From positions 3,109-67,108 of the forward strand of contig CAVSMB010000003.1 of the NCBI GenBank assembly GCA_963728925.1: 64,000 nt of DNA. The letters run 5' to 3'. Both the position numbers and the translations under genes were made by a program. Source of the DNA: an uncultured Actinomycetes bacterium (lineage in GTDB: Bacteria > Actinomycetota > Thermoleophilia > Solirubrobacterales > Solirubrobacteraceae). Under the pieces are notes generated by a model that saw nothing but the letters and a program-made list of their open reading frames with translations, was not told where the DNA came from and made no database searches. Positions within the stretch are counted from its first letter, which is position 1. Every line of letters begins with the position of its first letter. This document shows, one piece after another, positions 4,961 through 40,288 of this stretch.

Positions 4961-6190
4961 ATGTACGACGCGATCGTCGTCGGCGCGCGCTGCGCCGGCT
5001 CGCCGACGGCAATGCTCCTGGCGCGCGCGGGCCACCGCGTCCTGCTGGTCGACAAGGCCGACTTCCCGAGCGACACGCTCTCGACCCACTACATCCACCA
5101 GCCGGGCGTGGCGTGCCTGCACCGCTGGGGGCTCCTGCCGGAGATCGTCGACTCCAACTGCCCGCCGATCCGCTCCTACACGCTCGACGTCGGCCCCTTC
5201 GCCCTCCGAGGTGAGCCGCCGCCCGCCGGCGAACTCGCGGACGCCTACTCCGTCCGCCGCACGATCCTCGATCGCGTGCTCGTCGAGGCGGCCGAACGAG
5301 CAGGGGTCGAGATGCGAACGCGGTTCGCCGTCGAGGGACTGGTCACCGAGGGCGACCGCGTCGTCGGCGTTCGCGGGCGGACGGCCGGCGGCCCGCCGGT
5401 GACCGAGCGGGCCAGGATGGTCATCGGAGCCGACGGCAGGTTCTCGCTGGTCGCCCGCGCCGTCGACGCCCCGGCCTACGACGTGCAGCCGGCGACGACC
5501 TGCGCGTACTACACCTACTGGCGCGGGGTCGAGATGGAGGGCGCCGAGCTCTACTCGCGGCCCGGCCGGATGATCGTCGCCGCCCCCACCAACGACGGCC
5601 AGGTCCTGACCATCGCCTTCTGGCCACTCAGCGAGTTCAAGCAGGTCCGCTCCGACATCGAGGGCAACTTCCGCGAGGTGCTCGAGCTCGCCCCGGGCCT
5701 CGCCGAGCGGATCCGCCACGGGAGGCGCAGCGACCGCTTCCGCGGGACGACCCAGCTCGACAACTACTTCCGCCGCCCCTACGGCGACGGATGGGCGCTG
5801 GTCGGCGACGCCGGCTACCACAAGGACCCGATCCTGGCCCTCGGAATCGCCGACGCGTTCCGCGACGCCGAGCTCCTGGCCGACGCGGTGGACGCCGGCT
5901 TCTCCGGCCGGCGACCGCTCGCCTCGGCGCTCGCCGGGTACGAGCGACGCCGCAACGAGACGGCGGCGTCGGGCTTCGAGGCCACGATCCAGTTCGCCCG
6001 GCTCCAAGCGCCCGCGCCAGAGAGGCAGGAGCTCTTCGCCGCCCTCCTGCACGACCAGGAGGAGACGAACCGCTTCTTCGGCACCTTCGCCGGAACCGTC
6101 CCGGCCGCGGAGTTCTTCGCGCCCGAGAACGTCGCGCGGATCGTCGCCGGCGGCGCCGAGGCCGGCGCGGAGATGGCCGCCGTGCACTAG
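4961..6190 (+). CDS. FAD-dependent oxidoreductase / monooxygenase (geranylgeranyl reductase-like)
   Basis: MYDAIVVGARCAGSPTAMLLARAGHRVLLVDK is a dinucleotide-binding GxGxxG fold, and GDAGYHKDPILALG is the FAD-binding GD motif. I moved the start to the ATG preceded by GAAAGAGGA (the track ORF starts at 4931). Confidence 0.85.
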   Translation: MYDAIVVGARCAGSPTAMLLARAGHRVLLVDKADFPSDTLSTHYIHQPGVACLHRWGLLPEIVDSNCPPIRSYTLDVGPFALRGEPPPAGELADAYSVRRTILDRVLVEAAERAGVEMRTRFAVEGLVTEGDRVVGVRGRTAGGPPVTERARMVIGADGRFSLVARAVDAPAYDVQPATTCAYYTYWRGVEMEGAELYSRPGRMIVAAPTNDGQVLTIAFWPLSEFKQVRSDIEGNFREVLELAPGLAERIRHGRRSDRFRGTTQLDNYFRRPYGDGWALVGDAGYHKDPILALGIADAFRDAELLADAVDAGFSGRRPLASALAGYERRRNETAASGFEATIQFARLQAPAPERQELFAALLHDQEETNRFFGTFAGTVPAAEFFAPENVARIVAGGAEAGAEMAAVH

Positions 6191-6220
6191 GAAGCGGGTT
6201 GCGCGCGGGGCTGCCAGGAG

Positions 6221-6234
6221 CGAACATGTGTTCG
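6221..6234 (+). promoter_or_regulatory. LexA (SOS/Cheo) box, perfect palindrome CGAACATGTGTTCG
   Basis: Matches the Gram-positive/actinobacterial consensus CGAAC-N4-GTTCG exactly. It overlaps the dinB start codon (GTG 6228). Confidence 0.8.
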
Positions 6235-7409
6235 TGTCGAATGAGGCCACGATCCTCCACGCCGACCTCGACGCCTTCTTCGCCTCGGTCGAGCAACGCG
6301 ACGATCCCCGCCTGCGTGACCGGCCTCTCATCGTCGGGAGAGGCGTCGTGCTCGCGGCGAGCTACGAGGCGCGGACGCACGGCGTCCGCTCGGGGATGGG
6401 CGGCGCGCGGGCCCGGGCGCTGTGCCCGCGCGCGGTCGTCGTCGAGGCGCGGTGGTCGGCCTACGTGGAGGCGAGCACGGCGGTGTTCGACGTCTTCGAG
6501 CGGACCGCGCCGCGCGTCGAGCGGCTGTCGATCGACGAGGCGTTCCTCGACGTCGACGGGCTGGAGCGGATCTCGGGCACGCCGGAGGAGATAGCCGTCC
6601 GCCTGCGGCGCGAGGTCCTGGAGCGGGTTGGCCTCTCCATCACCGTCGGCGTGGCCAGGACGAAGTTCCTCGCCAAAGTCGCCAGCGGCGTGGCCAAGCC
6701 GGACGGCCTGCTCGTCGTGCCGCCCGAGCGGGAGCTCGCGTTCCTCCATCCCCTTCCCGTGCAACGCCTGTGGGGCGTTGGCCCCGCCACCGCCTCCAGG
6801 CTCCACCGCCTGGGCGTCGCCACCGTCGGACAGGTCGCCAGGCTCGACGAGGCCGCGCTGGTCCGCGCTCTGGGGCGGGCGACCGGCCGGCAGCTCCACG
6901 CGCTCGCCCACAACCGCGACCCGCGGCCGGTGCGGCCGGCGCGCCGCCGGCGTTCGTTCGGGGCGCAGTCCGCGCTGCGCCGGTCGTCGAGAACGCCAAG
7001 GGCGCTCGACGCCGTGCTGCTCGCGCTGGTCGACCGCGTCACCCGGCGGATGCGCGCCCGCGGGCGCGTCGGGCGGACCGTCGTCCTCCGCCTGCGCTTC
7101 GACGACTTCTCACGCGCGAGTCGCTCGCGCACCCTCTCCGCGCCGACCGCGGCCACGACGCCGATCCTCGCGACGGCGCGGGCGCTGCTGCGCGCGGCCG
7201 GCCCGCTGATCGCCCGCAAAGGGCTCACCCTGGTCGGAGTGACGGTCGCCAACCTCGACGGCGGCGGCCCGGTCCAGCTCGAGCTCGCGCTGGAGGGTCT
7301 CGGCCACGACGCCCTGGACGCCGTGCTGGACGAGGTTCGCGACCGGTTCGGCTCGGCGGCCCTCACCCGCGCCGCCCTGCTCGGATGCGACGCGAGCATG
7401 ACGGACTGA
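6228..7409 (+). CDS. dinB: DNA polymerase IV (Y-family translesion polymerase)
   Basis: ILHADLDAFFASVEQRDDPRLRDRPLIVG...SIDEAFLDV...ITVGVARTKFLAKVASG...P.QRLWGVGP are canonical DinB motifs. Confidence 0.93.
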   Translation: MFVSNEATILHADLDAFFASVEQRDDPRLRDRPLIVGRGVVLAASYEARTHGVRSGMGGARARALCPRAVVVEARWSAYVEASTAVFDVFERTAPRVERLSIDEAFLDVDGLERISGTPEEIAVRLRREVLERVGLSITVGVARTKFLAKVASGVAKPDGLLVVPPERELAFLHPLPVQRLWGVGPATASRLHRLGVATVGQVARLDEAALVRALGRATGRQLHALAHNRDPRPVRPARRRRSFGAQSALRRSSRTPRALDAVLLALVDRVTRRMRARGRVGRTVVLRLRFDDFSRASRSRTLSAPTAATTPILATARALLRAAGPLIARKGLTLVGVTVANLDGGGPVQLELALEGLGHDALDAVLDEVRDRFGSAALTRAALLGCDASMTD

Positions 7410-15512: not shown

Positions 15513-16243
15513 CCGGGCCGCCGGGGGCCGCCGTGGTCTGGCACGACCTCGAGTGCGGCTCCTATCGAGCCGACCTGCCGCTCTGGTCGCAGCTCGCCCG
15601 CGAGCACGGCGGCCGAGTGCTCGACGTCGGCGCCGGCGCCGGGCGGGTGAGCGTCGAGCTCGCCCGGGAGGGGATCGAGGTGGTCGCTCTGGATCGCGAC
15701 CCCGAGCTGCTCGGCGCGCTCGAGCGCCGCGCCCGGGGCCTCCCGCTCACGGCCGTGCTGGCCGACGCCCGCGACTTCTCGATCCCCCGTCGCTTCGGCC
15801 TGATCATCGCGCCGATGCAGACCGTCCAACTGCTCGACGGCCCCGCCGGGCGCGCCGCCTTCCTGCGCCTCGCGCGCGCCCACCTCGCGCCGGGCGGCGT
15901 GCTCGCCGCCGCGCTCGCCGAGGACCTGGAGGACTTCTCGGCCGACCTGCCGCTGCCGCCGGCCGACCTCGCCGTCCTGCACGGCTGGACGTGGCGCAGC
16001 CAGCCGACGGGCCTGCGCACCGACGGCGCCCGCGTCGCGCTGGAGCGCCTGCGGGAGGCCGTCGCGCCCGACGGCGCCTGCACGGTGACCCGCGACGTCG
16101 TGCACCTCGACCGCGTCGACGCGGACACGCTCGAGGACGAGGGAGCGTCGGCCGGGCTGCGCGTGCTCCCCCGCCGGGTCGTCGACGCGACGGAGGAGCA
16201 CGTGGGCAGCGCGGTGGTGCTGCTGGGGGCCGGCGCTACTTGA
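15509..16243 (+). CDS. class I SAM-dependent methyltransferase
   Basis: The ATG at 15509 overlaps the previous stop (ATGA). Motif I is RVLDVGAGAGRVSVELA. Confidence 0.8.
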   Translation: MTGPPGAAVVWHDLECGSYRADLPLWSQLAREHGGRVLDVGAGAGRVSVELAREGIEVVALDRDPELLGALERRARGLPLTAVLADARDFSIPRRFGLIIAPMQTVQLLDGPAGRAAFLRLARAHLAPGGVLAAALAEDLEDFSADLPLPPADLAVLHGWTWRSQPTGLRTDGARVALERLREAVAPDGACTVTRDVVHLDRVDADTLEDEGASAGLRVLPRRVVDATEEHVGSAVVLLGAGAT

Positions 16244-17201
16244 GGTTGTTGGCGGCGAGGAACGCGCCCGCCACCTCCGCCGGCTGCTTCTTCTCGGTCT
16301 GCACGGCCGCGTTCATGCTGCGGATCGCCGGCTCGGTGAGCAGCCCGTTGACCTTGTTGACGACGGCCATGAACGCCGGGCCGCCGAGCGCCTGGTACTT
16401 CGGCTTGTTGATCACGAACAGGACGTTCTGGAAGCCGAACACGCCCTTGGGGTCCTTGAGGATCGTGTACTTGTTCGAGGCGAGCTGGGCGTCGGTGGTG
16501 AACACGTTGGCCGTGTCGATGTCGCCCTTGTCCAGCGCCGGGTACTGCAGGCCGCTGGCGAGCTGCTTGAACACGCCGTTGTCGATCCCGTAGACCTTCT
16601 TGATGCCCGCGAAGCCCACCGCGCGGTCCTTGAACTCCGGCCGGGCGCCGAGCGTGAACGTCTTGAGCTTCTTGAGGTCGGGAAGCGACGTGAGGCCGTT
16701 CTTGGCCCCGTAGGCCTTGAGGACCGCGATTGCGTCGACGTCCTCGAAGGGCGTCGGGTTGCTGGTCGCCTGGCCACGCCCGGCGTAGAACGCCTTGGCC
16801 AGGGCCGTCGTCTTCGCGGCGCTGCCCGTCAGCGTGTCGTCTCCCTTCACCGTCGCGACGGTCTCTCCCGTGTACTCGGGGTAGGCGTCGATCTTCCCGC
16901 TCGTGAGGGCCTTGTCGACGATCTCCGTCGCGCCGATGTTGCTCTTGACGGTGACCGTGTAGCCCTTGGCGCGCAGCGCCTGGGCGTAGAGCTCGCCGAG
17001 GATGAACTCCTCGGGGAAGTCCTTGGTTCCGATCGTGAGCCCGGGCTTGCCCTTGCCCGGCTGGTCCGAGCTCGCCTGCGACGAGCCCGTGTCCGAGCTG
17101 CTGCTGTCGTCGCTGCCGCATCCCGCCGCGACGAGCGCGACGAGCGCGACGATCCCGGCCGCGAGCAGCGCGAGCAGCCTTCCCTTGTGTCTGGCGTGCA
17201 C
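16236..17201 (-). CDS. glycine betaine/choline-type ABC transporter substrate-binding lipoprotein
   Basis: Lipobox VAAGCGSD, and OpuBC/OpuCC-like core (KDFPEEFILGELYAQAL...GKIDAYPEYTG). Confidence 0.88.
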   Translation of the reverse strand: MHARHKGRLLALLAAGIVALVALVAAGCGSDDSSSSDTGSSQASSDQPGKGKPGLTIGTKDFPEEFILGELYAQALRAKGYTVTVKSNIGATEIVDKALTSGKIDAYPEYTGETVATVKGDDTLTGSAAKTTALAKAFYAGRGQATSNPTPFEDVDAIAVLKAYGAKNGLTSLPDLKKLKTFTLGARPEFKDRAVGFAGIKKVYGIDNGVFKQLASGLQYPALDKGDIDTANVFTTDAQLASNKYTILKDPKGVFGFQNVLFVINKPKYQALGGPAFMAVVNKVNGLLTEPAIRSMNAAVQTEKKQPAEVAGAFLAANNLK

Positions 17202-17247
17202 TGAACGTTCCTCCTCTGTGTGGTTGAGCGTGAGGCGTCTCTCGGGG

Positions 17248-17958
17248 TCAGCTGCGACCTGCGATGACGGCGACGTCGTCGACCTGGGCGCCCGTCGCCG
17301 GCACGAGACCCTGCATCTCGGGCGCGACCTTGATGCCGCGAGGCGTCACCAAGCGCTGGACGATGGCGAACAGGCCGTCCACCGCGAAGGCGAGGACGAC
17401 GACGACGAGCGTCGCGGCGATGACGCCCACGAGCTTGTAGGACGGCTGGTTGAGGATGATGTCGCCGAGCCCGCCGCCGCCGGCGATGGCCGCCAGTGGC
17501 GCGGTGGCGATGATGTAGACCGACGCGGTGCGCACGCCGGCGAAGATCAGCGGCCACGACAGGGGTAGCTCGACCCCGGTCAGGACCTGACGCTCGGTCA
17601 TGCCCATGCCGCGCGCCGCCTCGACCGCGTCGGGGTCCACGTTGTCCACGGCCGTGAAGGAGTTGGTCAGGATCGGCGGGAGCGCGAGGGCCACGAGCGC
17701 GACCTGGACGTTGATCACGCTGAGGCCGAGGAACGCCAGGCTGATGGCGATCAGCGCGAGGCTCGGCAGCGCCCGGAAGACGTTGGAGACGTTGATCGCG
17801 ACGAAGGAGCCAGCGTGACGGTGGCCGAGGAAGATCCCGAGCGGCAGCGCGACCACCAGCGAGATGAGGAGCGCGGTCGCCGAGATGCCGAGGTGGGAGA
17901 TCGTCTTCTCGAGAAGCAGGCTGGCGTTGTCCGCGAAGAAGCTGATCAGCTGGCTCAT
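17248..17958 (-). CDS. osmoprotectant ABC transporter permease
   Basis: C-terminal 237 codons of track ORF 17248..18699 (MSQLISFFADN...). BPD-transporter EAA-like loop AVEAARGMGMTERQVLTGVELPL. Confidence 0.88.
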   Translation of the reverse strand: MSQLISFFADNASLLLEKTISHLGISATALLISLVVALPLGIFLGHRHAGSFVAINVSNVFRALPSLALIAISLAFLGLSVINVQVALVALALPPILTNSFTAVDNVDPDAVEAARGMGMTERQVLTGVELPLSWPLIFAGVRTASVYIIATAPLAAIAGGGGLGDIILNQPSYKLVGVIAATLVVVVLAFAVDGLFAIVQRLVTPRGIKVAPEMQGLVPATGAQVDDVAVIAGRS

Positions 17959-18683
17959 GTCGCGCGCCTCCTGGCCCGCGCCCACGGCGTGGTGAAGCGC
18001 TGGACCAGGACGATCAGCACGTCCGCGATCAGGGCGAGGAGGATCGCGAGGATGCTCGCGGCCACGAACTCGGTGTTGGCCCCCGACTGGATCGCGCTGA
18101 AGATGGGCGCGCCGAGGCCCAGCGGCGTGATGAAGGCCGCGATGGTGGCGAGCGAGATCGTCGTCACCGTCGCTACCCGGACCCCGGCGATGATTGCCGG
18201 CATGGCCAGCGGCAGCTCCACCCGCCACAGCGTCTGGCGACGCGTCAGCCCCATCCCCGTCGCCGCCTCCTTGACGTCGTCGGGGACGTCGTGGAGACCG
18301 GTGAGCGTGTTGCGGAAGAGGATCAGCAGCGTGTAGGAGACCAGCGCGATCTCGATGCTCAACCAGCCGATCCCGGTGATCGGCACCATGATCTGGAAGA
18401 AGGCGATGCTCGGGATGGTGTAGAAGAGCGCCGAGAGGTTGGCGAAGGGCAGCTCGAAGCCGCGGCGGCGATGGGCGATGAGCGCCGCGGTGAACGCGAT
18501 GGCGAAGCCGATGACCATCGCGATCAGCGTCATCCGGATGTGCTCCCCGACACGGGGGAGGAAGCGCTCGTCGAAGTTGTCGACGAACCAGTGGAAGCAG
18601 AACTTCCCGTTGGTGCGGATGCACTCGTCGCCCCGCCCGAAGTTCGGGATGACGGGACCCTGCTGGGCCAGGACCGCGCTCAC
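17955..18683 (-). CDS. osmoprotectant ABC transporter permease
   Basis: 242-aa ORF with EAA loop VKEAATGMGLTRRQTLWRVELPLAMP. It has 4-bp overlaps with both neighbours. Confidence 0.88.
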   Translation of the reverse strand: MSAVLAQQGPVIPNFGRGDECIRTNGKFCFHWFVDNFDERFLPRVGEHIRMTLIAMVIGFAIAFTAALIAHRRRGFELPFANLSALFYTIPSIAFFQIMVPITGIGWLSIEIALVSYTLLILFRNTLTGLHDVPDDVKEAATGMGLTRRQTLWRVELPLAMPAIIAGVRVATVTTISLATIAAFITPLGLGAPIFSAIQSGANTEFVAASILAILLALIADVLIVLVQRFTTPWARARRRAT

Positions 18684-19711
18684 GCGACCGCTTCCTCACG
18701 GCCCGAGGCGAGCAGCCGGCTGACCGCGTCGAGGGTCAGGTAGCCGCGCACCTCGCCGTCCTCGTCACGCACGACGAGCGCGCTCGCCCCCTCGGTCAGC
18801 ATCAGCGAAAGCGCGTCGCGCAGGGTGACGTCGCTGTCGGCCTCCGCGTGACGAGCCCCGTTCGCGCTCGGCGCCTTGAGCAGCTCGATGTCGGCCAGCC
18901 GGCGCAGCCCGAGGCGCTTGAGCCCGCGGTCCGCGCCGACGAAGTCGGCGACGAAGTCGTCGGCCGGGTTGGCCAGGATCGCCTCAGGAGTGTCGAACTG
19001 GGCGAGCTTGCCACCGTGGCGCAAGAGGCAGATCCGATGCCCCATCGTGATCGCCTCGTCGATGTCGTGGGTGACGAAGACGACCGTCTTGCGCACCTCG
19101 CGATGCAGGCGCAAGAAGTCGCTCTGGAGCTTCTCCCGGGTGATCGGGTCGATCGCACCGAAGGGCTCGTCCATGAGCATCAGCGGCGGGTCGGCGGCCA
19201 TCGCGCGAGCCAGCCCGACGCGCTGGCGCTGGCCGCCTGAGAGCTGGGCCGGATAGCGCCGCGCGTAGTCGTCGGGGCTGAGCCCCACCAGCTCGAGCAG
19301 CTCGCGCGATCGCTCGCGGATGCGCGGCTTCTTCCAGCCGAGCAGCCGCGGGACGGTTCCGATGTTCCCTTCGACCGTCATGTGCGGGAAGAGCCCGATC
19401 TGCTGGATGACGTAGCCGATCCCGCGGCGCAACTCGGTGAAGTCGAGGTCCTTGACGCTCTGCCCGTCGATGGTTATGTCGCCCTCGGTGATCGAGATCA
19501 GCCGGTTGACCATCTTCATCGCTGTCGTCTTGCCCCCACCGGACGGGCCGATGAGCACGCAGATCTCGCCGGCCGGGACGGTGATCGAGAGGTCGTCGAC
19601 CGCCGGCTGCGGATTGTCGCCGTAGCGCTTGGTGACGTGATCGAAGACGATCTCGGCCGCCTGCGCCTGCGACGACGGCCCCTCGGACTGGGCAGAGTCA
19701 GGTGAAGTCAA
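18680..19711 (-). CDS. osmoprotectant ABC transporter ATP-binding protein with C-terminal CBS pair (OpuCA/ProV-like)
   Basis: Walker A GPSGGGKTT, signature LSGGQRQRVGLARA and Walker B LMLMDEPFGAID, with a C-terminal CBS-like region. Confidence 0.92.
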   Translation of the reverse strand: MTSPDSAQSEGPSSQAQAAEIVFDHVTKRYGDNPQPAVDDLSITVPAGEICVLIGPSGGGKTTAMKMVNRLISITEGDITIDGQSVKDLDFTELRRGIGYVIQQIGLFPHMTVEGNIGTVPRLLGWKKPRIRERSRELLELVGLSPDDYARRYPAQLSGGQRQRVGLARAMAADPPLMLMDEPFGAIDPITREKLQSDFLRLHREVRKTVVFVTHDIDEAITMGHRICLLRHGGKLAQFDTPEAILANPADDFVADFVGADRGLKRLGLRRLADIELLKAPSANGARHAEADSDVTLRDALSLMLTEGASALVVRDEDGEVRGYLTLDAVSRLLASGREEAVA

Positions 19712-28362: not shown

Positions 28363-30486
28363 TCAGAAGAGTGACCCCTGGCGCGGCGGAGCGGGCGCTG
28401 AGGGCGGCCGGCCTCGATCGTCGCCACCCTCCCACAGGCTCTGGGACGCCGCCCCTTCGTGGCCGGCGCTCTCGGGTGCCGGGTCGCGCTCCCTGGCCCC
28501 GCGCAGCGGCGTCAGGCACCCGCCGGTCTCCCGCGCGCCGCGGGGACGGACCAGGGCCGAGAGGCGCTCGCGCTCGGCCTGCGGGGCGTAGGCCCCGCGG
28601 CGGTAGAGCTCCTCGTAGCGCGGCACGAGGTCGGGGCGCTGGGCGCGCAGCCAGTCGAAGAAGATCCCGCGCACCTCCCCGCGCAGGTGCAGAGCGATCC
28701 CGCCGACGTGCGTCGCCCCGGCCTCCGCGCACAGGTCGAGGATCTCTGCCACCTGCTCGGGCGCGTCGTTGACGCCGGGCATCAGCGGCGCGACGAGGAC
28801 TCCCGTCGGGATTCCGGCGCGGTTGAGCTCGGCGACCGCCTCGATCCGCGCGCGCGGGTTCGGCGTCCGCGGCTCGGTGGCACGCCACGCCTTCTCGTCG
28901 AGGGTCGGGATCGACAGGTTCGCGGTGAACCCGACTCGCGCCGCAAGCTCCTTGAACAGCTCGATGTCGCGCAACAGCAGCGGTGACTTCGTGAGCACGG
29001 AGCACGGCGTGTCGCTGTCGCGCAGCGCAGCCCAGATGTCGGGCATCAGCCGGTAGCGCGACTCGACCCACTGGTAGGGATCGGTGTTCGTCCCGATGGC
29101 GACGTGCTCGCGCCTCCACCCCGGCTTGGCCAGCTCCACCCGCAGCACCTCGGGCGCGTTGACCTTGACGACGATCTCGCGCTCGAAGTCCCGACCGGCG
29201 TCCATGTCGAGATACGTGTGGGTGGGGCGAGCGAAGCAGTTGTGGCTGATCACGCCGTTGGCGATGAAGTCCCCGGTGCCCGTCGTGATGTCGTAGAGCG
29301 GCATCTCCACGCCGAGCGGCTCGACGGAGATGACCCCAAGCCGAGCGTCCGACTTGACCGCCATACCGTTGATCGTCCGCTTGCGGGTGATCGCGGGGTC
29401 CACGGTGTGGAAGAACCGAAGACGCTCGCGCAAGCCGCCGCGGAGCCGGACCACGCGGAGGCCGTTGGCCAGGCCGGGGTCCTCGAGCGCGAAATCGAAG
29501 TCCAGAGCCTCGAGGCTCTCGACAATCATGCGGATGATCGCCATATCTGTATTCGAAATCCGGAATATGCCTTGGCTGTGGCTTCCCTCGGCGTCGTAGA
29601 TGCCGGCCAGGAACCCCTTCCGCCAGTCGTCGCTGGGCGACCACGGCCAACGGATTGCATCGACGATTCGCGTTACACGAGTGGCCCCCCTGGCGCGGAT
29701 GGCCCACACGGGCTCGAACCGGCCGTGCGCGCGCTGAAACAGGTATTCGCCGGTCTCGACCGCGATGTCGCGGAGGTACGCACGGATCCTGAGCAAAGCC
29801 TCGAAGTCGACCAGAGCCAGGCGGGACGCGTTCGAGGCGCGGCCATCCGAGGGTTTCGTCCTGACATGACCATCTCCGCGCACCGTCCCGCAGAGGTATC
29901 CACGCCGGTAGTCGTCGCTCTCCTCAGGAGCTGCAGCGAAGCCTCCCGTACCGACCAGCCCGTTGTTCGTCGTCAGATACGGTCGCTGCAGCGGGCCGCC
30001 CATCGAACCGGTGACGTACTTCCAACCACGATCGCTCAGGAAGCGGTGGTCCCCGCTCGCGATCAATTCGGTTCCGTCTTCGACGATGATCCTGTGCGCG
30101 GGTTTCGTCGTTGACCAGTGCGCGTGAACTGTCGTCGTCACGTACCGTCGGTGTCGACCCACGCCCACGGTTCCCACTACGCCGTCGCCGGCGCGAAGAT
30201 CTCGAAGTGCCTTCGGCCGGCCATCCGCCATCAGGATCGGCGTGTCGCCGCCCATACAGAACACGCATGCATGGCTGCATCCCCTGTACGGGTTGATGGT
30301 CCACCGGAAGGGCATCCGGGAGGCCTTGGGAACGCGGTTGAGTGCCGACTTGGCCCGCACTTCGTAGAAGCGGGTGTCCAGCGCCTCGGGCGCGTCGAAG
30401 GTGCGGACCACCGCGGGCTCGCGGTAGCCCGGCAGAGTCCGCGCCTCATCGGCCTCGACGAGCAGGTTGTCCCAGCGCACGAACAC
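28363..30486 (-). CDS. radical SAM protein of the SplB/Rv2578c (COG1533, DNA repair photolyase-annotated) type, interrupted by an intein
   Basis: Exteins read ...RWTINPYRGCSHACVF / CFARPTHTYLDMDAGRDFEREIVVK...TNTDPYQ...LTKSPL..., restoring a CX3CX2C motif once residues 77-416 are removed. Confidence 0.88.
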   Translation of the reverse strand: MFVRWDNLLVEADEARTLPGYREPAVVRTFDAPEALDTRFYEVRAKSALNRVPKASRMPFRWTINPYRGCSHACVFCMGGDTPILMADGRPKALRDLRAGDGVVGTVGVGRHRRYVTTTVHAHWSTTKPAHRIIVEDGTELIASGDHRFLSDRGWKYVTGSMGGPLQRPYLTTNNGLVGTGGFAAAPEESDDYRRGYLCGTVRGDGHVRTKPSDGRASNASRLALVDFEALLRIRAYLRDIAVETGEYLFQRAHGRFEPVWAIRARGATRVTRIVDAIRWPWSPSDDWRKGFLAGIYDAEGSHSQGIFRISNTDMAIIRMIVESLEALDFDFALEDPGLANGLRVVRLRGGLRERLRFFHTVDPAITRKRTINGMAVKSDARLGVISVEPLGVEMPLYDITTGTGDFIANGVISHNCFARPTHTYLDMDAGRDFEREIVVKVNAPEVLRVELAKPGWRREHVAIGTNTDPYQWVESRYRLMPDIWAALRDSDTPCSVLTKSPLLLRDIELFKELAARVGFTANLSIPTLDEKAWRATEPRTPNPRARIEAVAELNRAGIPTGVLVAPLMPGVNDAPEQVAEILDLCAEAGATHVGGIALHLRGEVRGIFFDWLRAQRPDLVPRYEELYRRGAYAPQAERERLSALVRPRGARETGGCLTPLRGARERDPAPESAGHEGAASQSLWEGGDDRGRPPSAPAPPRQGSLF
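29239..30258 (-). mobile_element. 340-aa class-1 intein with a LAGLIDADG homing-endonuclease domain
   Basis: Block A CMGGDTPILMADG; block B GTELIASGDHRFL; LAGLIDADG motifs YRRGYLCGTVRGDGH and KGFLAGIYDAEGSH; blocks F/G PLYDITTGTGDFIANGVISHN followed by +1 Cys. Codons verified at both junctions (aca 30256-30258 = Cys77; gtt 29239-29241 = Asn416). Confidence 0.85.
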
Positions 30487-30493: not shown

Positions 30494-30532
30494 CACTCGG
30501 TTCAAGCGGGGATGGCGCGGCACGACGTTCCC

Positions 30533-31717
30533 TAGTGGTGGGTCTTGGAAGTGGTGTTGGTCATGCGGCGAGCGGCTTGCCGGTGTAGGTCCAGGCGAAG
30601 GGTTTGGCGGTGAGGTTGTAGTGCTCGACGAAGGTGAGCATTTGGACGGCGAGGTCGTGGGGGCTGGTGAACTGCCCGTGGCGGAGCAGGCGGCGGGCGA
30701 GGATCGAGAAGAACATCTCGACCTGGTTGAGCCACGAGGCGTGCTTGGGCGTGAACACGAAGCGCCAGCGCGGGTGCTCGTCCAGCCATGCCTCGACGGC
30801 CTGGGTCTTGTGCGTGGAGAGGTTGTCGAGCACGGCGACGACCTGCCGGCCGACGGGGATCTCGGCGTCGAGCTGGTCGAGGAAGGCGATGAAGTTCCAC
30901 TGGTTGCGGGTGGGGGCGGTCATCCCGGACACCTCGCCGGAGTGCACCTGCAGGGCGGCGAACAGGTTCTGGGTGCCGTTGCGCAGGTACTCGCTGTCGC
31001 GCCGGGCGGGACGCCCGGGCGCCGGGAGCGTGTCGCGGCGCGCCGGTTCGCGCGCCGCGATCGAGGTCTTCTCGTCGACCGAGACGACGATCGCGTTGGC
31101 GGGCGGGTCGACGTAGAGGCCGCAGACTTCGGCGGCCTGGGCGTCGAACTCGGGGCCGAGCTCGCTCATCACCCACTGCTCGGTGACGTGCGGACGCAGG
31201 TCGGCTTCGGCGAGGATTGCCTGGGCGCGCGAGGCCGACATGCCGACCTGCTCGGCCAGCTCGGCCAGCGTCCAGCGCTCGCGCCGCACCCCGCCTTCGG
31301 TGTCCGGCGGCCGGGTACAAGCCAGCGCGATCAACCGCGCGCGGACCGCTTGATCATGCGTCAGCGGCCGCCCCGACTTGGGCCGGTCATGCAGCCCGTC
31401 AAGCCCTTCGCGCTCGTAGCGGGCGCGCTGACGACGCGCGGTCTCCGGCACACACCCGACGCGCTCAGCGATCTCGCCGGCCGGCCGGCCGTCGGCGGCC
31501 AGCAGCACGATCTGCGCGCGCTCTACCAGCCGCCGCTCAGCCGTGCGCGAGTTGGCCAGCTTCTCCAGCACCGGCCGGTCCTCCGCCGCAACCTCGATGC
31601 ACTTCGCATGCGCCGCCACGTTCGCCTCCATCGTCGCCCAACCAGAACGACAAGGCGATTCACCCACACCCCAACAACCTCCTGCAAGTGCCACAGAACT
31701 TGCAGGACCGACCACTA
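30533..31717 (-). mobile_element. IS630-family insertion sequence, copy 1 (with TA target duplication)
   Basis: Imperfect terminal inverted repeats TA-GTGGTGGGTCTTGGAAGT (30533-) and the reverse complement of ACTTGCAGGACCGACCAC-TA (-31717), matching in 16 of 19 positions, enclose a single DDE transposase gene. Confidence 0.85.
30561..31631 (-). CDS. IS630 family transposase
   Basis: MEANVAAHAKCIEVAAEDRPVLEKLANSRT... with N-terminal HTH, then DDE region VSVDEKT...VLDNLSTHKT...HASWLNQVEMFF. Internal ATG of track ORF 30561..32150. Confidence 0.9.
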   Translation of the reverse strand: MEANVAAHAKCIEVAAEDRPVLEKLANSRTAERRLVERAQIVLLAADGRPAGEIAERVGCVPETARRQRARYEREGLDGLHDRPKSGRPLTHDQAVRARLIALACTRPPDTEGGVRRERWTLAELAEQVGMSASRAQAILAEADLRPHVTEQWVMSELGPEFDAQAAEVCGLYVDPPANAIVVSVDEKTSIAAREPARRDTLPAPGRPARRDSEYLRNGTQNLFAALQVHSGEVSGMTAPTRNQWNFIAFLDQLDAEIPVGRQVVAVLDNLSTHKTQAVEAWLDEHPRWRFVFTPKHASWLNQVEMFFSILARRLLRHGQFTSPHDLAVQMLTFVEHYNLTAKPFAWTYTGKPLAA

Positions 31718-32230
31718 GGCGTACACCCCGTCCAGCCACGCCTTGAGCGCCGCCTCGCGCGCCGCAGCGTCGACGCCGTCCGTGAACGCGTGCGCGCTCA
31801 TCCCGACGACGCTGCCGAAGTGGTTGCGCCCGAAGAAGCGGTACAGGCCGTCGTCGGTCCGGACGCCGAGGAACTCCGGCGTGGAGTAGTCGATGACGCC
31901 GTCGAGCGTGCCGGCGTCGCCGAGCGACGCATGGACCGCATCGCCCACGCTCGCGTCCGCGGACACGCCGAGTGCGGCGCGCAGCGCCTCCATCGCGTCC
32001 GGCGTTCCGGCGGCCTCGGGCCCCTCGATGCCGGACGACGGCTGGCCGACGTACGTGACCCCGCGGCCGTTGAAGTGCTCGAGGTACTGCCCGAGCGTGT
32101 GGAGGTAGAAGTCCGTGTGGGCGCCGATGGCGTCGTACTGGTCCTCCCACCCGTCGGCGAGAATCCCGCTGTGGACGTAGCGCAGGTGCGCCGTGCCGCC
32201 GTCGCGGGCCTCGCGAGGCGCGCGCTCCAA
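31715..32230 (-). pseudogene. 5'-truncated SRPBCC (Aha1-like) domain protein gene
   Basis: It begins inside the family-conserved stretch (DGGTAHLRYVHSGILADGWEDQYDAIGAHTDFYLHTLGQYLEHF). The usual ~100-aa N-terminal SRPBCC part is missing and miaB ends 26 bp upstream. Its TAG stop shares the TA duplicated by IS630 copy 1. Confidence 0.5.
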
Positions 32231-32236
32231 GACGAG

Positions 32237-32264
32237 CGCGCTCAGGCCGCCGCGCTCAGGCCGC
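32237..32264. repeat. 14-bp tandem duplication (CGCGCTCAGGCCGC x2) spanning the miaB stop codon
   Basis: Read directly: cgcgctcaggccgc cgcgctcaggccgc, followed by a partial cgcgc. Confidence 0.8.
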
Positions 32265-33593
32265 CGCGCCGGCGAGCAGCGAGGCCTCGCCGGCGAGCGT
32301 CTGGCTCGTCGCGCTGGTGATGCGAACGTCGACGAGGTCGCCGGGGGCGGCGAGGCCGTCGAAGTTCACGACCTTGTTGTGGCGCGAGCGGCCGCGCAGG
32401 CGCGAGGGGTCGGTGCGCGAGGGGCCCTCGACGAGCACCCCGAGCGTGCGTCCGACGAAGCGCTGCGCGCGCTCGTGGGCCCGGCGCTGGACGACCTCGA
32501 CAAGCCGCTCCATGCGCGCGACCGCGACCTCGTGGTCGACCCGGCCGTCGAGCGTCGCCGCCTCGGTCCCGCGCCGCGGCGAGTAGATGAAGGTGAAGGC
32601 GCCGTCGTAGCCCACCTCCTCGCACACCTCGAGGGTCTGCTCGAAGTCCGCCTCGGTCTCCCCCGGGAAGCCGACGATCACGTCGGTGGTGATCGCGCAG
32701 TCGGGCACGTGCTCGCGGATCAGCGCCACGCGGTCGAGGTAGCGCTCGCGCGAGTAGGTGCGGCGCATCGCCTTGAGGATCCGCGAGGACCCGGCCTGCA
32801 GCGGCAGATGGACGTGCTCGCACAGCGACCGCAGCCGCGCGTGCGCGAGGACGACGTCCTCGCGCATGTCCTTGGGGTGCGGGCTCGTGTAGCGCAGGCG
32901 CTCGAGCCCGTCGATCGCGTCCAGTCGCTCGAGGAGCTGCGCGAAGGAGCAGGGCGGCGCGCCGCGGCGCCCGAGATCGCGGCCGTAGGCGTTGACGTTC
33001 TGGCCCAGCAGGGTCACCTCGCTCACGCCTTCGCGCACGAGCGCCTCGACTTCGGCGGCGAGCTCCTCGGCCGAGCGCGAGACCTCTCGCCCGCGCGTCG
33101 AGGGCACGATGCAGTAGGAGCAGCGCATGTTGCAGCCCACGCTGATCTGCACCCAGCCCTGGAAGTCGCGGGCCCGCTTGGCGGGGAGGTGGCCGGTGAA
33201 GCCCTCGAACTCGAAGAAGCCCTGGGCGGTGAGCGAGTCCGAGGTCAGGAACTCGGCGAGCTTGTGCACCTGGCCCGGGCCGAAGGCGACGTCGACGAAG
33301 GGGAAGCGGCGGAAGACCTCCTCCTTGACCGACTGCGCCCAGCACCCGCCGACCCCGATCACCGTGCCCGGCCGGTCGCGCTTGAGCCGCCGGGCCTCCC
33401 CGAGGTGGCCGATGAAGCGCTCGTCGGCCTTCTCGCGGATCGAGCAGGTGTTGAAGAGTATCAGGTCGGCCTCGTCGCGTGCCGGCGCCTCGGCGTACCC
33501 GAGCGACTCGAGCATGCCCTTCATGCGCTCGGAGTCGTGCTCGTTCATCTGGCAGCCGAACGTCGTGAGGTGGTAGCGCAGCACGACGGCCAA
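32256..33593 (-). CDS. miaB: tRNA (N6-isopentenyl adenosine(37)-C2)-methylthiotransferase
   Basis: YHLTTFGCQMNEHDSE (UPF0004 domain), radical SAM VSVGCNMRCSYCIVP, and a TRAM C-terminus. The start is TTG 33593 or GTG 33584. Confidence 0.92.
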   Translation of the reverse strand: MAVVLRYHLTTFGCQMNEHDSERMKGMLESLGYAEAPARDEADLILFNTCSIREKADERFIGHLGEARRLKRDRPGTVIGVGGCWAQSVKEEVFRRFPFVDVAFGPGQVHKLAEFLTSDSLTAQGFFEFEGFTGHLPAKRARDFQGWVQISVGCNMRCSYCIVPSTRGREVSRSAEELAAEVEALVREGVSEVTLLGQNVNAYGRDLGRRGAPPCSFAQLLERLDAIDGLERLRYTSPHPKDMREDVVLAHARLRSLCEHVHLPLQAGSSRILKAMRRTYSRERYLDRVALIREHVPDCAITTDVIVGFPGETEADFEQTLEVCEEVGYDGAFTFIYSPRRGTEAATLDGRVDHEVAVARMERLVEVVQRRAHERAQRFVGRTLGVLVEGPSRTDPSRLRGRSRHNKVVNFDGLAAPGDLVDVRITSATSQTLAGEASLLAGAAA

Positions 33594-34020
33594 GGGTACC
33601 CCGGCCGCCGTGCCCGCTCCCGGAGAGCGGTCAGTTGTCGATGACCGTGTAGTGGAAGGTGACCGGCGGCAGGTCGATGGCCGCGGCGCCCACGTTGCAG
33701 ACGACGACGCGGATGAAGCCGTTGGCCACTGCGGCCTGGCCGTAGACCGTGACCGCTGCGGCAACCGGGTTGTAGTCGGCCCGTGGCGACACGGTGACCT
33801 GGTCGGTCGTCGTTGCGCCGGGTACGACCGGCGTCGCGTAGTCGCAGGCCCCGGCGCCGATGTTCGGGAAGTCGATGGAGACCGTGCCCGAGGCCTTGCC
33901 GATGTCGACCCCGTCGAGCGTGCCGTTCGTGACCTCGTCGCCGGAGACGGAGTTCGGGCCGAGCTCAGAGGCTCCGATCGCGGCCGAGGCGATGTCGGCG
34001 GCGGTCAGGGTCTCGGTGGC

Positions 34021-37341: not shown

Positions 37342-38481
37342 CTACGCACGAGCTGCGACTCGATCCAGGGCGGCCGCGAGGCGTCCTTCCGGCCCTCTAT
37401 GTCGTGATGCGTTGATTCGTGCGCAGTAGCGGGCGATCGAGTCGAGAATTTGGTCGGCGGTTTTGGTCCAGACGAATGGTTTGGGGTCGTCGTTCCAGGT
37501 CTCGATCCAGGTGCGGATGTCGGTGTTGAGTGCCCGGACGGAGCGGTGCGCGCCGCGTTTGAGCAGCTTGCTGGTGAGCTCGGAGAACCAGCGCTCGACG
37601 AGGTTCAGCCACGACGAACTGGTCGGGGTGAAGTGCAAGACGAAGCGCGGGTGCGCGGCCAGCCAGCGTTGGATGGCCGGTGTCTTGTGGGTCGAGGAGT
37701 TGTCGAGCACGACGTGGACGTCAAGGTCGGCGGGGACCTCGCGCTCCAGCGTGGCCAGGAACCGCTTGAACTCGACCGCGCGGTGGCGTGAGTGCAGGCG
37801 CCCGATGACCTTGCCGGTCGTGAGGTCCAGCGCGGCGTAGAGACTCGACGTGCCGGCGCGCTTGTAGTCGTGGGTGGCGCGTTGGGGAGTGCCGGGCAGC
37901 ATCGGCAGGATCGGCGCGGTCCGGTCAAGCGCTTGGATCTGGGATTTCTCGTCGACGCAGAGCACGACGGCGCGTTCGGGCGGGTTGAGATAGAGCCCGA
38001 CGACGTCGCGGACCTTCTCGATGAACTGCGGATCCTTGGAGAGCTTCCATGTGTCCTGGCGGTGTGGTTGAAGCCCAAAGGCCTTCCAGATCCGCAGCAC
38101 GGCGGACTGGGTGAGCCCGACCTCGCGCGCCATCGAACGCGTCGACCAGTGCGTCGCGTCCTTGGGCGTGGTCTCCAGCGTGCGGACGACGACCTCCTCG
38201 ACCTGCTCGTCGGTGATCGTGCGCGGGCGCCCCGGCCGCGACTCATCGAGCAGCCCGTCGAGCCGCTGCTCAGCAAACCGGGCGCGCCACATCCTCGCCA
38301 TGTTGCGCGAGACCCCAAGCCGCTCGGCGATCTCGGTGTTCTTCAGGCCGTCGGCCGCAAGCAGGACAACCCGCGAGCGCTGCGCGAGCGCCTGCGCGCT
38401 CGTTCGCCGCCGCGTCCACGCCTCCAACTGCGCGCGCTCGTCATCGGACAACTCAATCGCAACAGCAACATTCGATGGCAT
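37342..38481 (-). CDS. IS630 family transposase (ORF reads through the left IR into flanking DNA)
   Basis: HTH N-terminus and DDE region LCVDEKSQ...VLDNSSTHKT...SSSWLNLVERWF. The last ~19 codons lie outside the inverted repeat. Confidence 0.9.
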   Translation of the reverse strand: MPSNVAVAIELSDDERAQLEAWTRRRTSAQALAQRSRVVLLAADGLKNTEIAERLGVSRNMARMWRARFAEQRLDGLLDESRPGRPRTITDEQVEEVVVRTLETTPKDATHWSTRSMAREVGLTQSAVLRIWKAFGLQPHRQDTWKLSKDPQFIEKVRDVVGLYLNPPERAVVLCVDEKSQIQALDRTAPILPMLPGTPQRATHDYKRAGTSSLYAALDLTTGKVIGRLHSRHRAVEFKRFLATLEREVPADLDVHVVLDNSSTHKTPAIQRWLAAHPRFVLHFTPTSSSWLNLVERWFSELTSKLLKRGAHRSVRALNTDIRTWIETWNDDPKPFVWTKTADQILDSIARYCARINASRHRGPEGRLAAALDRVAARA

Positions 38482-39190: not shown

Positions 39191-40288
39191 CTAGGCGGCC
39201 TGGCCGTCGAGCGCGGCGAGCTCGGGCGGCTGCTCGCCGTCGGCGTGCTCGATGGGCTGGACGAGGTCGCGATCGATGCCCAGCGCCTCGTAGACCTTGC
39301 CCTCGATCTCCGCGGCGATCTCCGCGTGCTCGTCGAGGTAGGCCTTCGCGTTCGCGCGCCCCTGGCCGATCCGCTCATCCCCGTAGGAGAAGAACGAGCC
39401 CGACTTGGACACAATGCTGTGCTCGAGGCCGAGGTCGAGAATGCAGCCCGAGCTCGAGATCCCGCGGCCGAACTCGATGTCGAACTCCGCCTGGCGGAAA
39501 GGCGCGGCGACCTTGTTCTTGACCACCTTGACCCGCACGCGGTTGCCGACCGCCTCGGTGCCGTCCTTGAGCGTCTCGATGCGCCGGATGTCCAGGCGCT
39601 GGGACGAGTAGAACTTCAGCGCGCGGCCGCCGGGCTGGGTCTCGGGCGAGCCGAACATCACCCCGACCTTCTCGCGGATCTGGTTCGTGAAGACGCAGAG
39701 CGTGCCGCTGCGGTTGAGGTTGCCGGCCAGCTTGCGCATCGCCTGGGACATCATCCGGGCCTGGACGCCGACCGTCTGGTCGCCCATCTGCCCCTCGAGC
39801 TCGGCGCGCGGGGTCAGCGCTGCGACCGAGTCGATGGAGACGACGTCGACCGCGCTCGAGCGGATCAGCATGTCGGCGACCTCGAGCGCCTGCTCGCCGT
39901 AGTCGGGCTGGGAGACGAGCAGCTCGTCGATGTCGACGCCGATCCGCTGCGCGTAGAGCGGGTCCATGGCGTGCTCGGCGTCGATGAAGGCGCACACGCC
40001 GCCGAGCTTCTGCGCCTCGGCGAGGATGTGGTAGATCAGCGTCGTCTTGCCCGACGACTCCGGGCCGAAGATCTCGACGATCCGCCCGCGCGGCACCCCG
40101 CCGATGCCGAGCGCGAGGTCGAGCGACAGCGCACCGGTCGGGATCGCGTCGACCCGAACCTGGGCGCCGGGGTCGCCCATCCGCATGACCGTCCCCTTGC
40201 CGAACTCGCGCTCGATCTGGGCGAGCGCGCCCTGCAGCGCAGCATCGCGCGCCTTCGCGGTCTTGTCCTGCTCGGTCGTCGTCGCCAT
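39191..40288 (-). CDS. recA: recombinase RecA (no intein)
   Basis: KGTVMRMGD...[15 protein letters not shown]...FIDAEHA...[26 protein letters not shown]. Confidence 0.97.

Follow-up and report, generated by a model that had tools for sequence, protein, structure and literature searches.

A class-1 intein with a LAGLIDADG endonuclease directly before the third cluster cysteine of an Rv2578c-type radical SAM gene in a Solirubrobacteraceae genome

The DNA analysed here, referred to as the window, is a stretch of 64,000 nucleotides from an uncultured Actinomycetes bacterium of the Solirubrobacteraceae (assembly GCA_963728925.1, contig CAVSMB010000003.1, positions 3,109 to 67,108 of the forward strand). 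Its minus strand contains an intact open reading frame (ORF) of 2124 nt, opening with a GTG start codon at 30486 and ending at 28363, which encodes a 707-aa precursor. This is a radical S-adenosylmethionine (SAM) protein of the Rv2578c/COG1533 type, interrupted by what we describe as an intein. The parts of the gene are given below in window positions; in junction strings a slash marks the splice site.

28363-30486, minus strand: precursor gene, Rv2578c/COG1533-type radical SAM protein split by the intein (ORF list; Pfam Radical_SAM, 54.2 bits; NCBIfam NF038136, 697.1 bits).
30259-30486, minus strand: N-extein, aa 1-76, ending C70-S-H-A-C74-V-F with the first two [4Fe-4S] ligands (89% DNA identity to 6059-6298 of metagenome contig L001).
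29239-30258, minus strand: intein, aa 77-416 (340 aa), HINT splicing domain plus LAGLIDADG homing endonuclease (NF038136 match; absent from L001; Foldseek).
28366-29238, minus strand: C-extein, aa 417-707, beginning with C417 (+1) and then FARPTHTYL, with the remaining radical SAM barrel and a low-complexity tail (NF038136 profile from 335; L001 alignment).
30220-30258, minus strand: block A, CMGGDTPILMADG, Cys1 (C77) as first nucleophile (TIGR01445 at 77-150 and Hom_end_hint at 77-117, both below cut-off).
30037-30075, minus strand: block B, GTELIASGDHRFL (S144-x-x-H147; SGDHRFL is the family consensus, with S and H invariant across host families).
29863-29910, minus strand: first LAGLIDADG motif, YRRGYLCGTVRGDGHV, aa 193-208, catalytic D205 (G-D invariant in the cross-family alignment; I-DmoI-like fold).
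29581-29625, minus strand: second LAGLIDADG motif, WRKGFLAGIYDAEGS, aa 288-302, catalytic E300 (Pfam LAGLIDADG_3 at aa 288-329).
29239-29298, minus strand: blocks F and G, LYDITTGTGDFIANG-VISHN, ending in His415-Asn416 (TIGR01443 at 397-417).

The two junctions read ...NPYRGCSHACVF/CMGGDTPILMADG... and ...DFIANGVISHN/CFARPTHTYL. The insertion falls between F76 and the third cysteine of a CSHACVF/C motif, and excision of the insert recreates CSHACVFCFARPTH, as in intein-less homologues. The +1 residue, C417, combines two roles, as splice nucleophile and as third [4Fe-4S] cluster ligand. Splicing is predicted to produce the ligated junction peptide ...SHACVFCFARPTH... within a protein of 367 aa that has its C70-x3-C74-x2-C77 motif near the N-terminus. 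An unbroken CX3CX2C string is already present in the precursor, with intein Cys1 as its last member (C70, C74, C77), and the pair C74/C77 is a CxxC of Cys(-3) and Cys1. The Pfam PF04055 (Radical_SAM) match, with a cut-off of 29.5 bits, lies in the C-terminal part of the precursor. A preliminary description of this DNA, made by reading the letters, had delimited the ORF and both junctions, had equated residues 77-416 with 29239-30258, and had claimed that their removal restores the cluster motif. All these positions are exact, and the restored CSHACVFCFARPTH matches the intein-less homologues.

Further information about the insert was obtained from its homologues. An exhaustive phmmer search with the intein alone returned 2030 cluster representatives at E<=1e-3, of which 269 reach E<=1e-30. 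The best 120 homologues of the precursor (63-72% identical, about 690 aa) all carry an insert of 329-347 aa at CxxxCxx/C...SHN/CFARP. A search with the spliced extein instead finds intein-less proteins of 330-390 aa with up to 93% identity. The closest of them is encoded by L001, a JGI metagenome contig that is syntenic with the window (miaB, radical SAM gene, mscS, SDR, FIST, miaA, dapF and further genes). DNA of L001 aligns to window positions 30495-30256 and then directly to 29239-27112, with exactly the 1020 intein bases missing, and its reading frame continues ...TGCAAGTTC/TGTTTTGCTCGCCCC..., resuming at a TGC/TGT cysteine codon. L001 offers a natural empty site (TATCGAGGATGCAGTCATGCGTGCAAGTTCTGTTTTGCTCGCCCCACCCACACCTACCTC; substrate sequence within positions 6266-6325), and this allele could be used directly as a homing substrate.

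The presence of the segment in all of the best 120 full-length matches could be taken to mean that the 340 aa have become a permanent accessory domain that does not splice, such as a LAGLIDADG module domesticated for DNA binding. Domesticated LAGLIDADG folds are known from other proteins, and WhiA is among the Foldseek matches. However, the 239 close homologues divide into 121 with a full intein, one with a mini-intein and 117 with none, the last group including the closest relative at 93%, and the exact boundaries of the segment restore the motif. A normal domain found family-wide, which the preliminary description had named as the observation that would speak against an intein, is not what these proteins show. 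Moreover, Cys1, His-Asn and the +1 Cys are invariant, and a retained insert would put 340 residues between the third cluster ligand and the first two. We consider an accessory domain extremely improbable.

The distribution of the intein among relatives bears signs of mobility. All nearest extein relatives of the window protein (93.5-83%) are intein-less, the best intein-bearing extein being 83% identical, and the nearest neighbour has the opposite intein status in 66 of the 239 proteins. In species-representative genomes, the intein occurs at the same site in Solirubrobacterales, Acidimicrobiales, Lentzea, Amycolatopsis, Pseudonocardia and Saccharothrix, and likewise in Geodermatophilus, Cryobacterium, Microbacterium and Antribacter. 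At this site, other Solirubrobacterales and Thermoleophilaceae have mini-inteins of 153-165 aa from which the greater part of the endonuclease is missing (L044, L047, L049, L050). Another, of 196 aa, is found in P0236, and forms of intermediate length (283-292 aa) occur in Amycolatopsis and Saccharothrix. Among 80 genome loci, which are a sample and not a census, 25 were full, 4 mini and 21 empty, and 30 were unresolved by junction parsing. Full, mini and empty alleles together give the usual picture of the homing cycle, in which invasion is followed by endonuclease decay and loss.

The family itself has a name. The precursor matches NCBIfam NF038136, "intein-containing Rv2578c family radical SAM protein", with 697.1 bits (E 2.1e-209) over profile positions 1-567 of 574. 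When the insert and the spliced extein were scanned separately, the insert alone covered NF038136 positions 76-334 (238 bits, E 2.3e-70) and the C-extein resumed at position 335. Therefore NF038136 has its intein at exactly the same site. A Solirubrobacteraceae protein that is 66% identical (P0113) carries precisely the NF038136 name at NCBI. According to Table 1 of Novikova et al. 2016 (PMC4760082), SplB (COG1533) is one of the leading intein hosts in bacteria, and its 48 inteins are exclusively actinobacterial. Whether an intein at this site had been catalogued, a point the preliminary description had left open, is settled by the NF038136 model and by this SplB/COG1533 entry, and the case is an ordinary one in an intein-bearing gene family already on record. 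The window protein and the NF038136 family share host family, insertion point, intein lineage and phylum. They differ in that the window protein belongs to the Thermoleophilia/Solirubrobacterales branch and not to mycobacteria-like actinomycetes, and the window intein is about 58% identical to its nearest 50%-cluster representative. We found no open-access paper that discusses an intein position inside the radical SAM cluster motif, a search that covered PMC4760082 up to its supplementary tables.

The insert has the anatomy of a splicing element with an endonuclease. Cys1 (C77, in CMGGDTPIL) is invariant in the cross-family alignment, and the SHN/C junction is present in 120 of 120 homologues, the best matches to the precursor. 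The LAGLIDADG motifs read GYLCGTVRGD205G and GFLAGIYDAE300G, and their acidic residues are conserved both in the family and across host families. Two models match above cut-off, Pfam LAGLIDADG_3 (PF14528; 28.2 against 22.5 bits, residues 288-329) and TIGR01443 for the C-terminal splicing region (18.2 against 15.6 bits, residues 397-417). The class-1 blocks claimed in the preliminary description are all there: C77, S144/H147, H415-N416, C417, D205 and E300.

An AlphaFold2 model of the whole precursor has a medium mean predicted local distance difference test score (pLDDT) of 64, with most of the intein between 70 and 90. In a Foldseek search of the PDB, it comes closest to inteins that carry an endonuclease (TliVMA, PI-SceI, PhoVMA and PI-PfuI, with the entries 7qsu, 1vde, 1ef0 and 1dq3 at E 1e-12 to 1e-9), and the BIL/HINT domain 6y75 was matched as well. 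Global TM-scores are low because the model is multi-domain. The endonuclease core is matched best by I-DmoI, with a target-normalised TM-score of 0.63-0.70 and a root-mean-square deviation of about 4.3 A over about 185 columns. PI-SceI, TliVMA, PI-PfuI and I-DmoI share with the window intein the two-domain architecture of a HINT splicing domain and a monomeric double-LAGLIDADG endonuclease, yet they are 12-18% identical to it, reside in other hosts (V-ATPase, ribonucleotide reductase) and have other target sites. The NF038136 and LAGLIDADG_3 matches of the insert, its 269 strongest cluster representatives and its exact absence from L001 go well beyond chance. We conclude that the insert combines a class-1 intein and a homing endonuclease of the monomeric, double-LAGLIDADG kind.

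According to these results, the best explanation of the locus, to which we give a probability of about 93%, is a canonical class-1 intein with a two-motif LAGLIDADG endonuclease in an Rv2578c/COG1533 radical SAM gene, placed directly before the third cysteine of CX3CX2C. Several observations weigh against it. The NF038136 score of the precursor is 2.9 bits under the curated cut-off of 700, and the spliced extein reaches 405 bits against the cut-off of 430 of NF038135 (Rv2578c family radical SAM protein; profile 1-310 of 317). The spliced extein is a near-threshold, divergent Thermoleophilia branch, and, with both NCBIfam cut-offs narrowly missed, an automated pipeline might give the window protein merely a generic label. 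Pfam Intein_splicing, Hom_end_hint and TIGR01445 match in the right places at scores below cut-off. By the usual intein block consensus, Thr is expected in block B and a His is common in block F. Here block B carries Ser and block F lacks the His. Since both features are conserved in the family, they are probably harmless. In addition, the searchable literature reports no experimental splicing or cleavage for any member of the Rv2578c intein family, and an insertion sequence upstream of the intein-bearing gene may affect its expression. This element, which is separate from the intein, is the following.

30531-31719, minus strand: IS630-family insertion sequence (36-nt imperfect terminal inverted repeats; DDE_3 plus helix-turn-helix; absent from L001).

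Its transposase, of about 356 aa, is encoded at 31631-30561 on the minus strand, and the end of the element is 45 bp upstream of the GTG start of the radical SAM gene. This position, and the absence of the element from the syntenic L001, would fit a copy that is decaying or inactive: an intein that splices or is merely tolerated, with a dead endonuclease, or a gene silenced by the IS630 element, in either case passed on by vertical descent alone. The mini-inteins at the same site likewise document that endonuclease loss occurs in the Rv2578c intein family, and the window intein, with 340 aa, is a few residues under the 343-347 typical of its relatives. Nevertheless, nothing interrupts the ORF of 2124 nt, the acidic residues of both LAGLIDADG motifs are kept together with every residue of the splice junctions, and the endonuclease region is free of gaps in the conserved motifs when compared with relatives from several host families. 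We regard decay as improbable for this copy.

Base composition also sets the canonical intein apart from its host gene. The GC content of the intein is 0.652, and 0.806 at third codon positions (GC3), compared with 0.733 and 0.924 in the C-extein and a GC content of 0.732 in the whole window. Ranked by GC content among all 1020-bp windows of the 64 kb, the intein comes within the lowest 0.5%. The insert is indeed AT-richer than its flanks, as the preliminary description had noted. Its further suggestion, that this fits horizontal invasion, holds less well: the deficit is real but weak evidence for a recent event, because an intein of lower GC, in the same direction, recurs in 27 of 29 homologous loci. 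The deficit is thus a recurrent property of the intein and not a sign of recent arrival, and as proof of recent horizontal invasion it is ruled out. It is compatible with mobility or with weaker codon selection.

On the established class-1 pathway, from which the steps are taken, splicing would begin with an N-S acyl shift at the F76-C77 bond by Cys77. Cys417 (+1) would then attack the thioester to give a branched intermediate, Asn416 would cyclise with the assistance of His415 and release the intein, and an S-N shift would join F76 to C417, recreating CSHACVFCFARPTH. The 367-aa spliced enzyme would then be able to bind its cluster via C70, C74 and C417. The freed 340-aa intein would act as a site-specific endonuclease on intein-less alleles, with a homing target around ...TGC GTG TTC/TGC TTC GCT CGC CCC..., and cleavage there would trigger copying of the intein gene. 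On this pathway, the window copy is predicted to splice and its endonuclease to cut.

The position of the insert bears on the activity of the host enzyme. Since the insert places 340 residues between the first two ligands on one side and the third ligand with the remaining barrel on the other, it is a reasonable inference that activity needs splicing and that the unspliced precursor would be inactive. Before splicing, the enzyme probably cannot assemble a [4Fe-4S] cluster in the right geometry. Binding of a cluster or metal by the precursor is possible on sequence, because C77 completes the C70/C74/C77 CX3CX2C string. The locus is a clear textbook example of an intein whose +1 nucleophile doubles as a catalytic metal ligand.

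The same contiguous C70-x3-C74-x2-C77 string in the precursor would also fit a more elaborate scheme, in which conditional splicing is added to the canonical model. An oxidised disulfide, or binding of metal or an Fe-S cluster in the precursor, would block the first acyl shift. This we hold to be possible but unlikely. As part of it, Cys74, Cys77, Cys70 and Cys417 would form a four-thiol site, and an oxygen-labile enzyme would mature in the reducing state alone, a proposal that we put forward just as tentatively. A Cys at -3 is obligatory for every intein at the third-Cys site of CX3CX2C, which can be read in favour of such control. However, this also means that the CxxC follows automatically from the insertion site and is in itself no evidence of selection for regulation.

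The closest precedent is the intein of Pyrococcus abyssi MoaA. MoaA is itself a radical SAM enzyme, and Callahan et al. 2011 are reportedly the source of the Cys-3/Cys1 redox trap in its intein. Like that of the window, it is a class-1 intein in a radical SAM host with a Cys at -3 and Cys1 (PMC3922620, PMC10663303). According to the same two papers, its native Cys-3/Cys1 disulfide controls activity, and it has been shown by experiment that this geometry gives disulfide control (PMC3922620, PMC10663303). On the other side, the MoaA intein is archaeal and lies in another host family than that of the window.

A second comparison is the SufB intein of Mycobacterium tuberculosis, which like the window intein is actinobacterial and has a host in iron-sulfur metabolism. 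Its splicing has been proposed to respond to oxidative stress. The splicing reaction has also been studied kinetically (PMC8891592). However, SufB is a cluster-assembly scaffold and not a radical SAM enzyme, and its intein site is not a cluster ligand. The two intein lineages are unrelated as far as tested, with no SufB match in the NCBIfam scans of the window protein.

Relatives of the canonical intein are found beyond Rv2578c. Both junctions could be read in 39 of the listed representatives, and 35 of these have CxxxCxx/C, one is inserted one cysteine earlier and three have damaged motifs. Hosts other than Rv2578c are DUF5131/"radical SAM mobile pair A" proteins (one fused to ParB_N), B12-binding and PA0069-like proteins and other radical SAM proteins. 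Their inteins are 35-50% identical to that of the window over 340 residues and collinear through the endonuclease. Such inteins at CxxxCx[YF]/C...HN/C are found in P0260, P0268, P0275, P0283, P0291, P0298, P0300, P0324, P0343, P0347, P0363 and P0367. These proteins have no specific NCBIfam model, and their intein parts match NF038136 best. In P0275, a B12-binding radical SAM protein, the intein precedes the second cluster ligand (SRGCPYR/C...HN/CNFC). A neighbour-joining tree of the inteins, computed without support values and serving as an indication only, places the Rv2578c-hosted inteins in one clade, with the other host families mixed in the remainder.

Viral genes carry the lineage too. 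In IMG/VR contigs L082-L090, radical SAM genes of phages are interrupted at the same motif position by full-length relatives that are 31-42% identical, and L091, also from IMG/VR, has a more distant intein in a QueE-like CNLRCEW/C.../CDT motif. A tblastn search of GenBank phage genomes with the intein gave no match at 1e-5. The lineage seems to follow the cluster loop across the radical SAM superfamily, as other inteins cluster in P-loops.

It could be proposed that a single lineage homes to the cluster-binding loop itself and that its Cys(-3)/Cys1/Cys(+1) triad ties splicing to redox or Fe-S status, although we find this doubtful. If true, and if this spread is new, these inteins would provide post-translational control over oxygen-labile radical SAM enzymes in general, and the gated enzymes would include an SOS-linked, possibly clamp-tethered, repair enzyme. 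By itself, the window finding adds one more member to a catalogued family. The residual novelty is in the possible coupling of splicing to the Fe-S site and in the cross-family, phage-associated spread of the lineage. This wider pattern could merit a survey, with the Cys-rich junctions as a family in which to look for redox- or metal-controlled splicing.

Concerning the function of the host enzyme, the SplB-type label given in the preliminary description stands at the level of the COG. It does not extend to spore photoproduct lyase in the strict sense, an identity that we rejected, as the corresponding model TIGR04070 scores 13.9-15.4 bits against a cut-off of 400. Structure searches added little. 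Phmmer with the precursor against the PDB found nothing, and a profile of the spliced family against the PDB gave no solved structure by sequence, only a spurious match to a ribosomal protein. The AlphaFold model of the extein is poor (mean pLDDT 55), and its Foldseek matches, at TM-scores of about 0.3, indicate a weak, generic likeness to radical SAM barrels that carries no functional conclusion. Spore photoproduct lyase is not in the top 50 Foldseek matches of this low-confidence model.

The far end of the host protein has a short feature of its own.

28366-28380, minus strand: C-terminal pentapeptide QGSLF of the host protein (QxxLF end in 230/240 homologues).

A QxxLF terminus closes 230 of the 240 Rv2578c-family homologues (P0001-P0240), with or without an intein, after a variable linker rich in Pro and Arg. 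It resembles the C-terminal pentapeptides that bind the beta sliding clamp. Together with the LexA chromatin immunoprecipitation peak at M. tuberculosis Rv2578c (PMC3381160), the QxxLF end suggests that the enzyme works on DNA at the clamp. The Rv2578c/Rv2579 region of M. tuberculosis binds LexA and shows RecA-dependent induction (PMC3381160), and SplB-like radical SAM genes have been found in SOS-type neighbourhoods (PMC3765255). The link of the host enzyme to DNA damage is indirect.

Other genes of the window were noted in passing. The adjoining miaB (32256-33764, minus strand) also encodes a radical SAM protein. It reads GCNMRCSYC/IVP at about 33134 (motif region about 33110-33157) and has no intein, and 26 of 48 positions around the codon of its third Cys agree with the DNA of the invaded site. 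For these reasons, miaB can serve as a natural specificity control. Between miaB and the IS630 element lies an ORF of 171 aa (31715-32230, minus strand) with no Pfam match and no counterpart in L001, which could represent a gene particular to the lineage, a remnant or a spurious ORF. A second transposase of the IS630 family, distinct from the first and 38% identical to it (37342-38481, minus strand; 379 aa), lies within a GC-poor block of roughly 1.5 kb that separates recX from a methyltransferase gene, and is likewise absent from L001.

Neither the Rfam scan nor the tRNA scan of the window gave a match. In Actinobacteria, RecA often hosts an intein (PMC4760082), but the recA gene of the window, beside recX (39191-40288, minus strand; 365 aa), has no intein. 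The other markedly low-GC stretch of the window, with a GC content below 0.68, contains a glycine-betaine-type ABC transporter cluster (16236-19711, minus strand), composed, as judged from the translations, of a binding protein, two permeases and an ATPase with a CBS-like tail.

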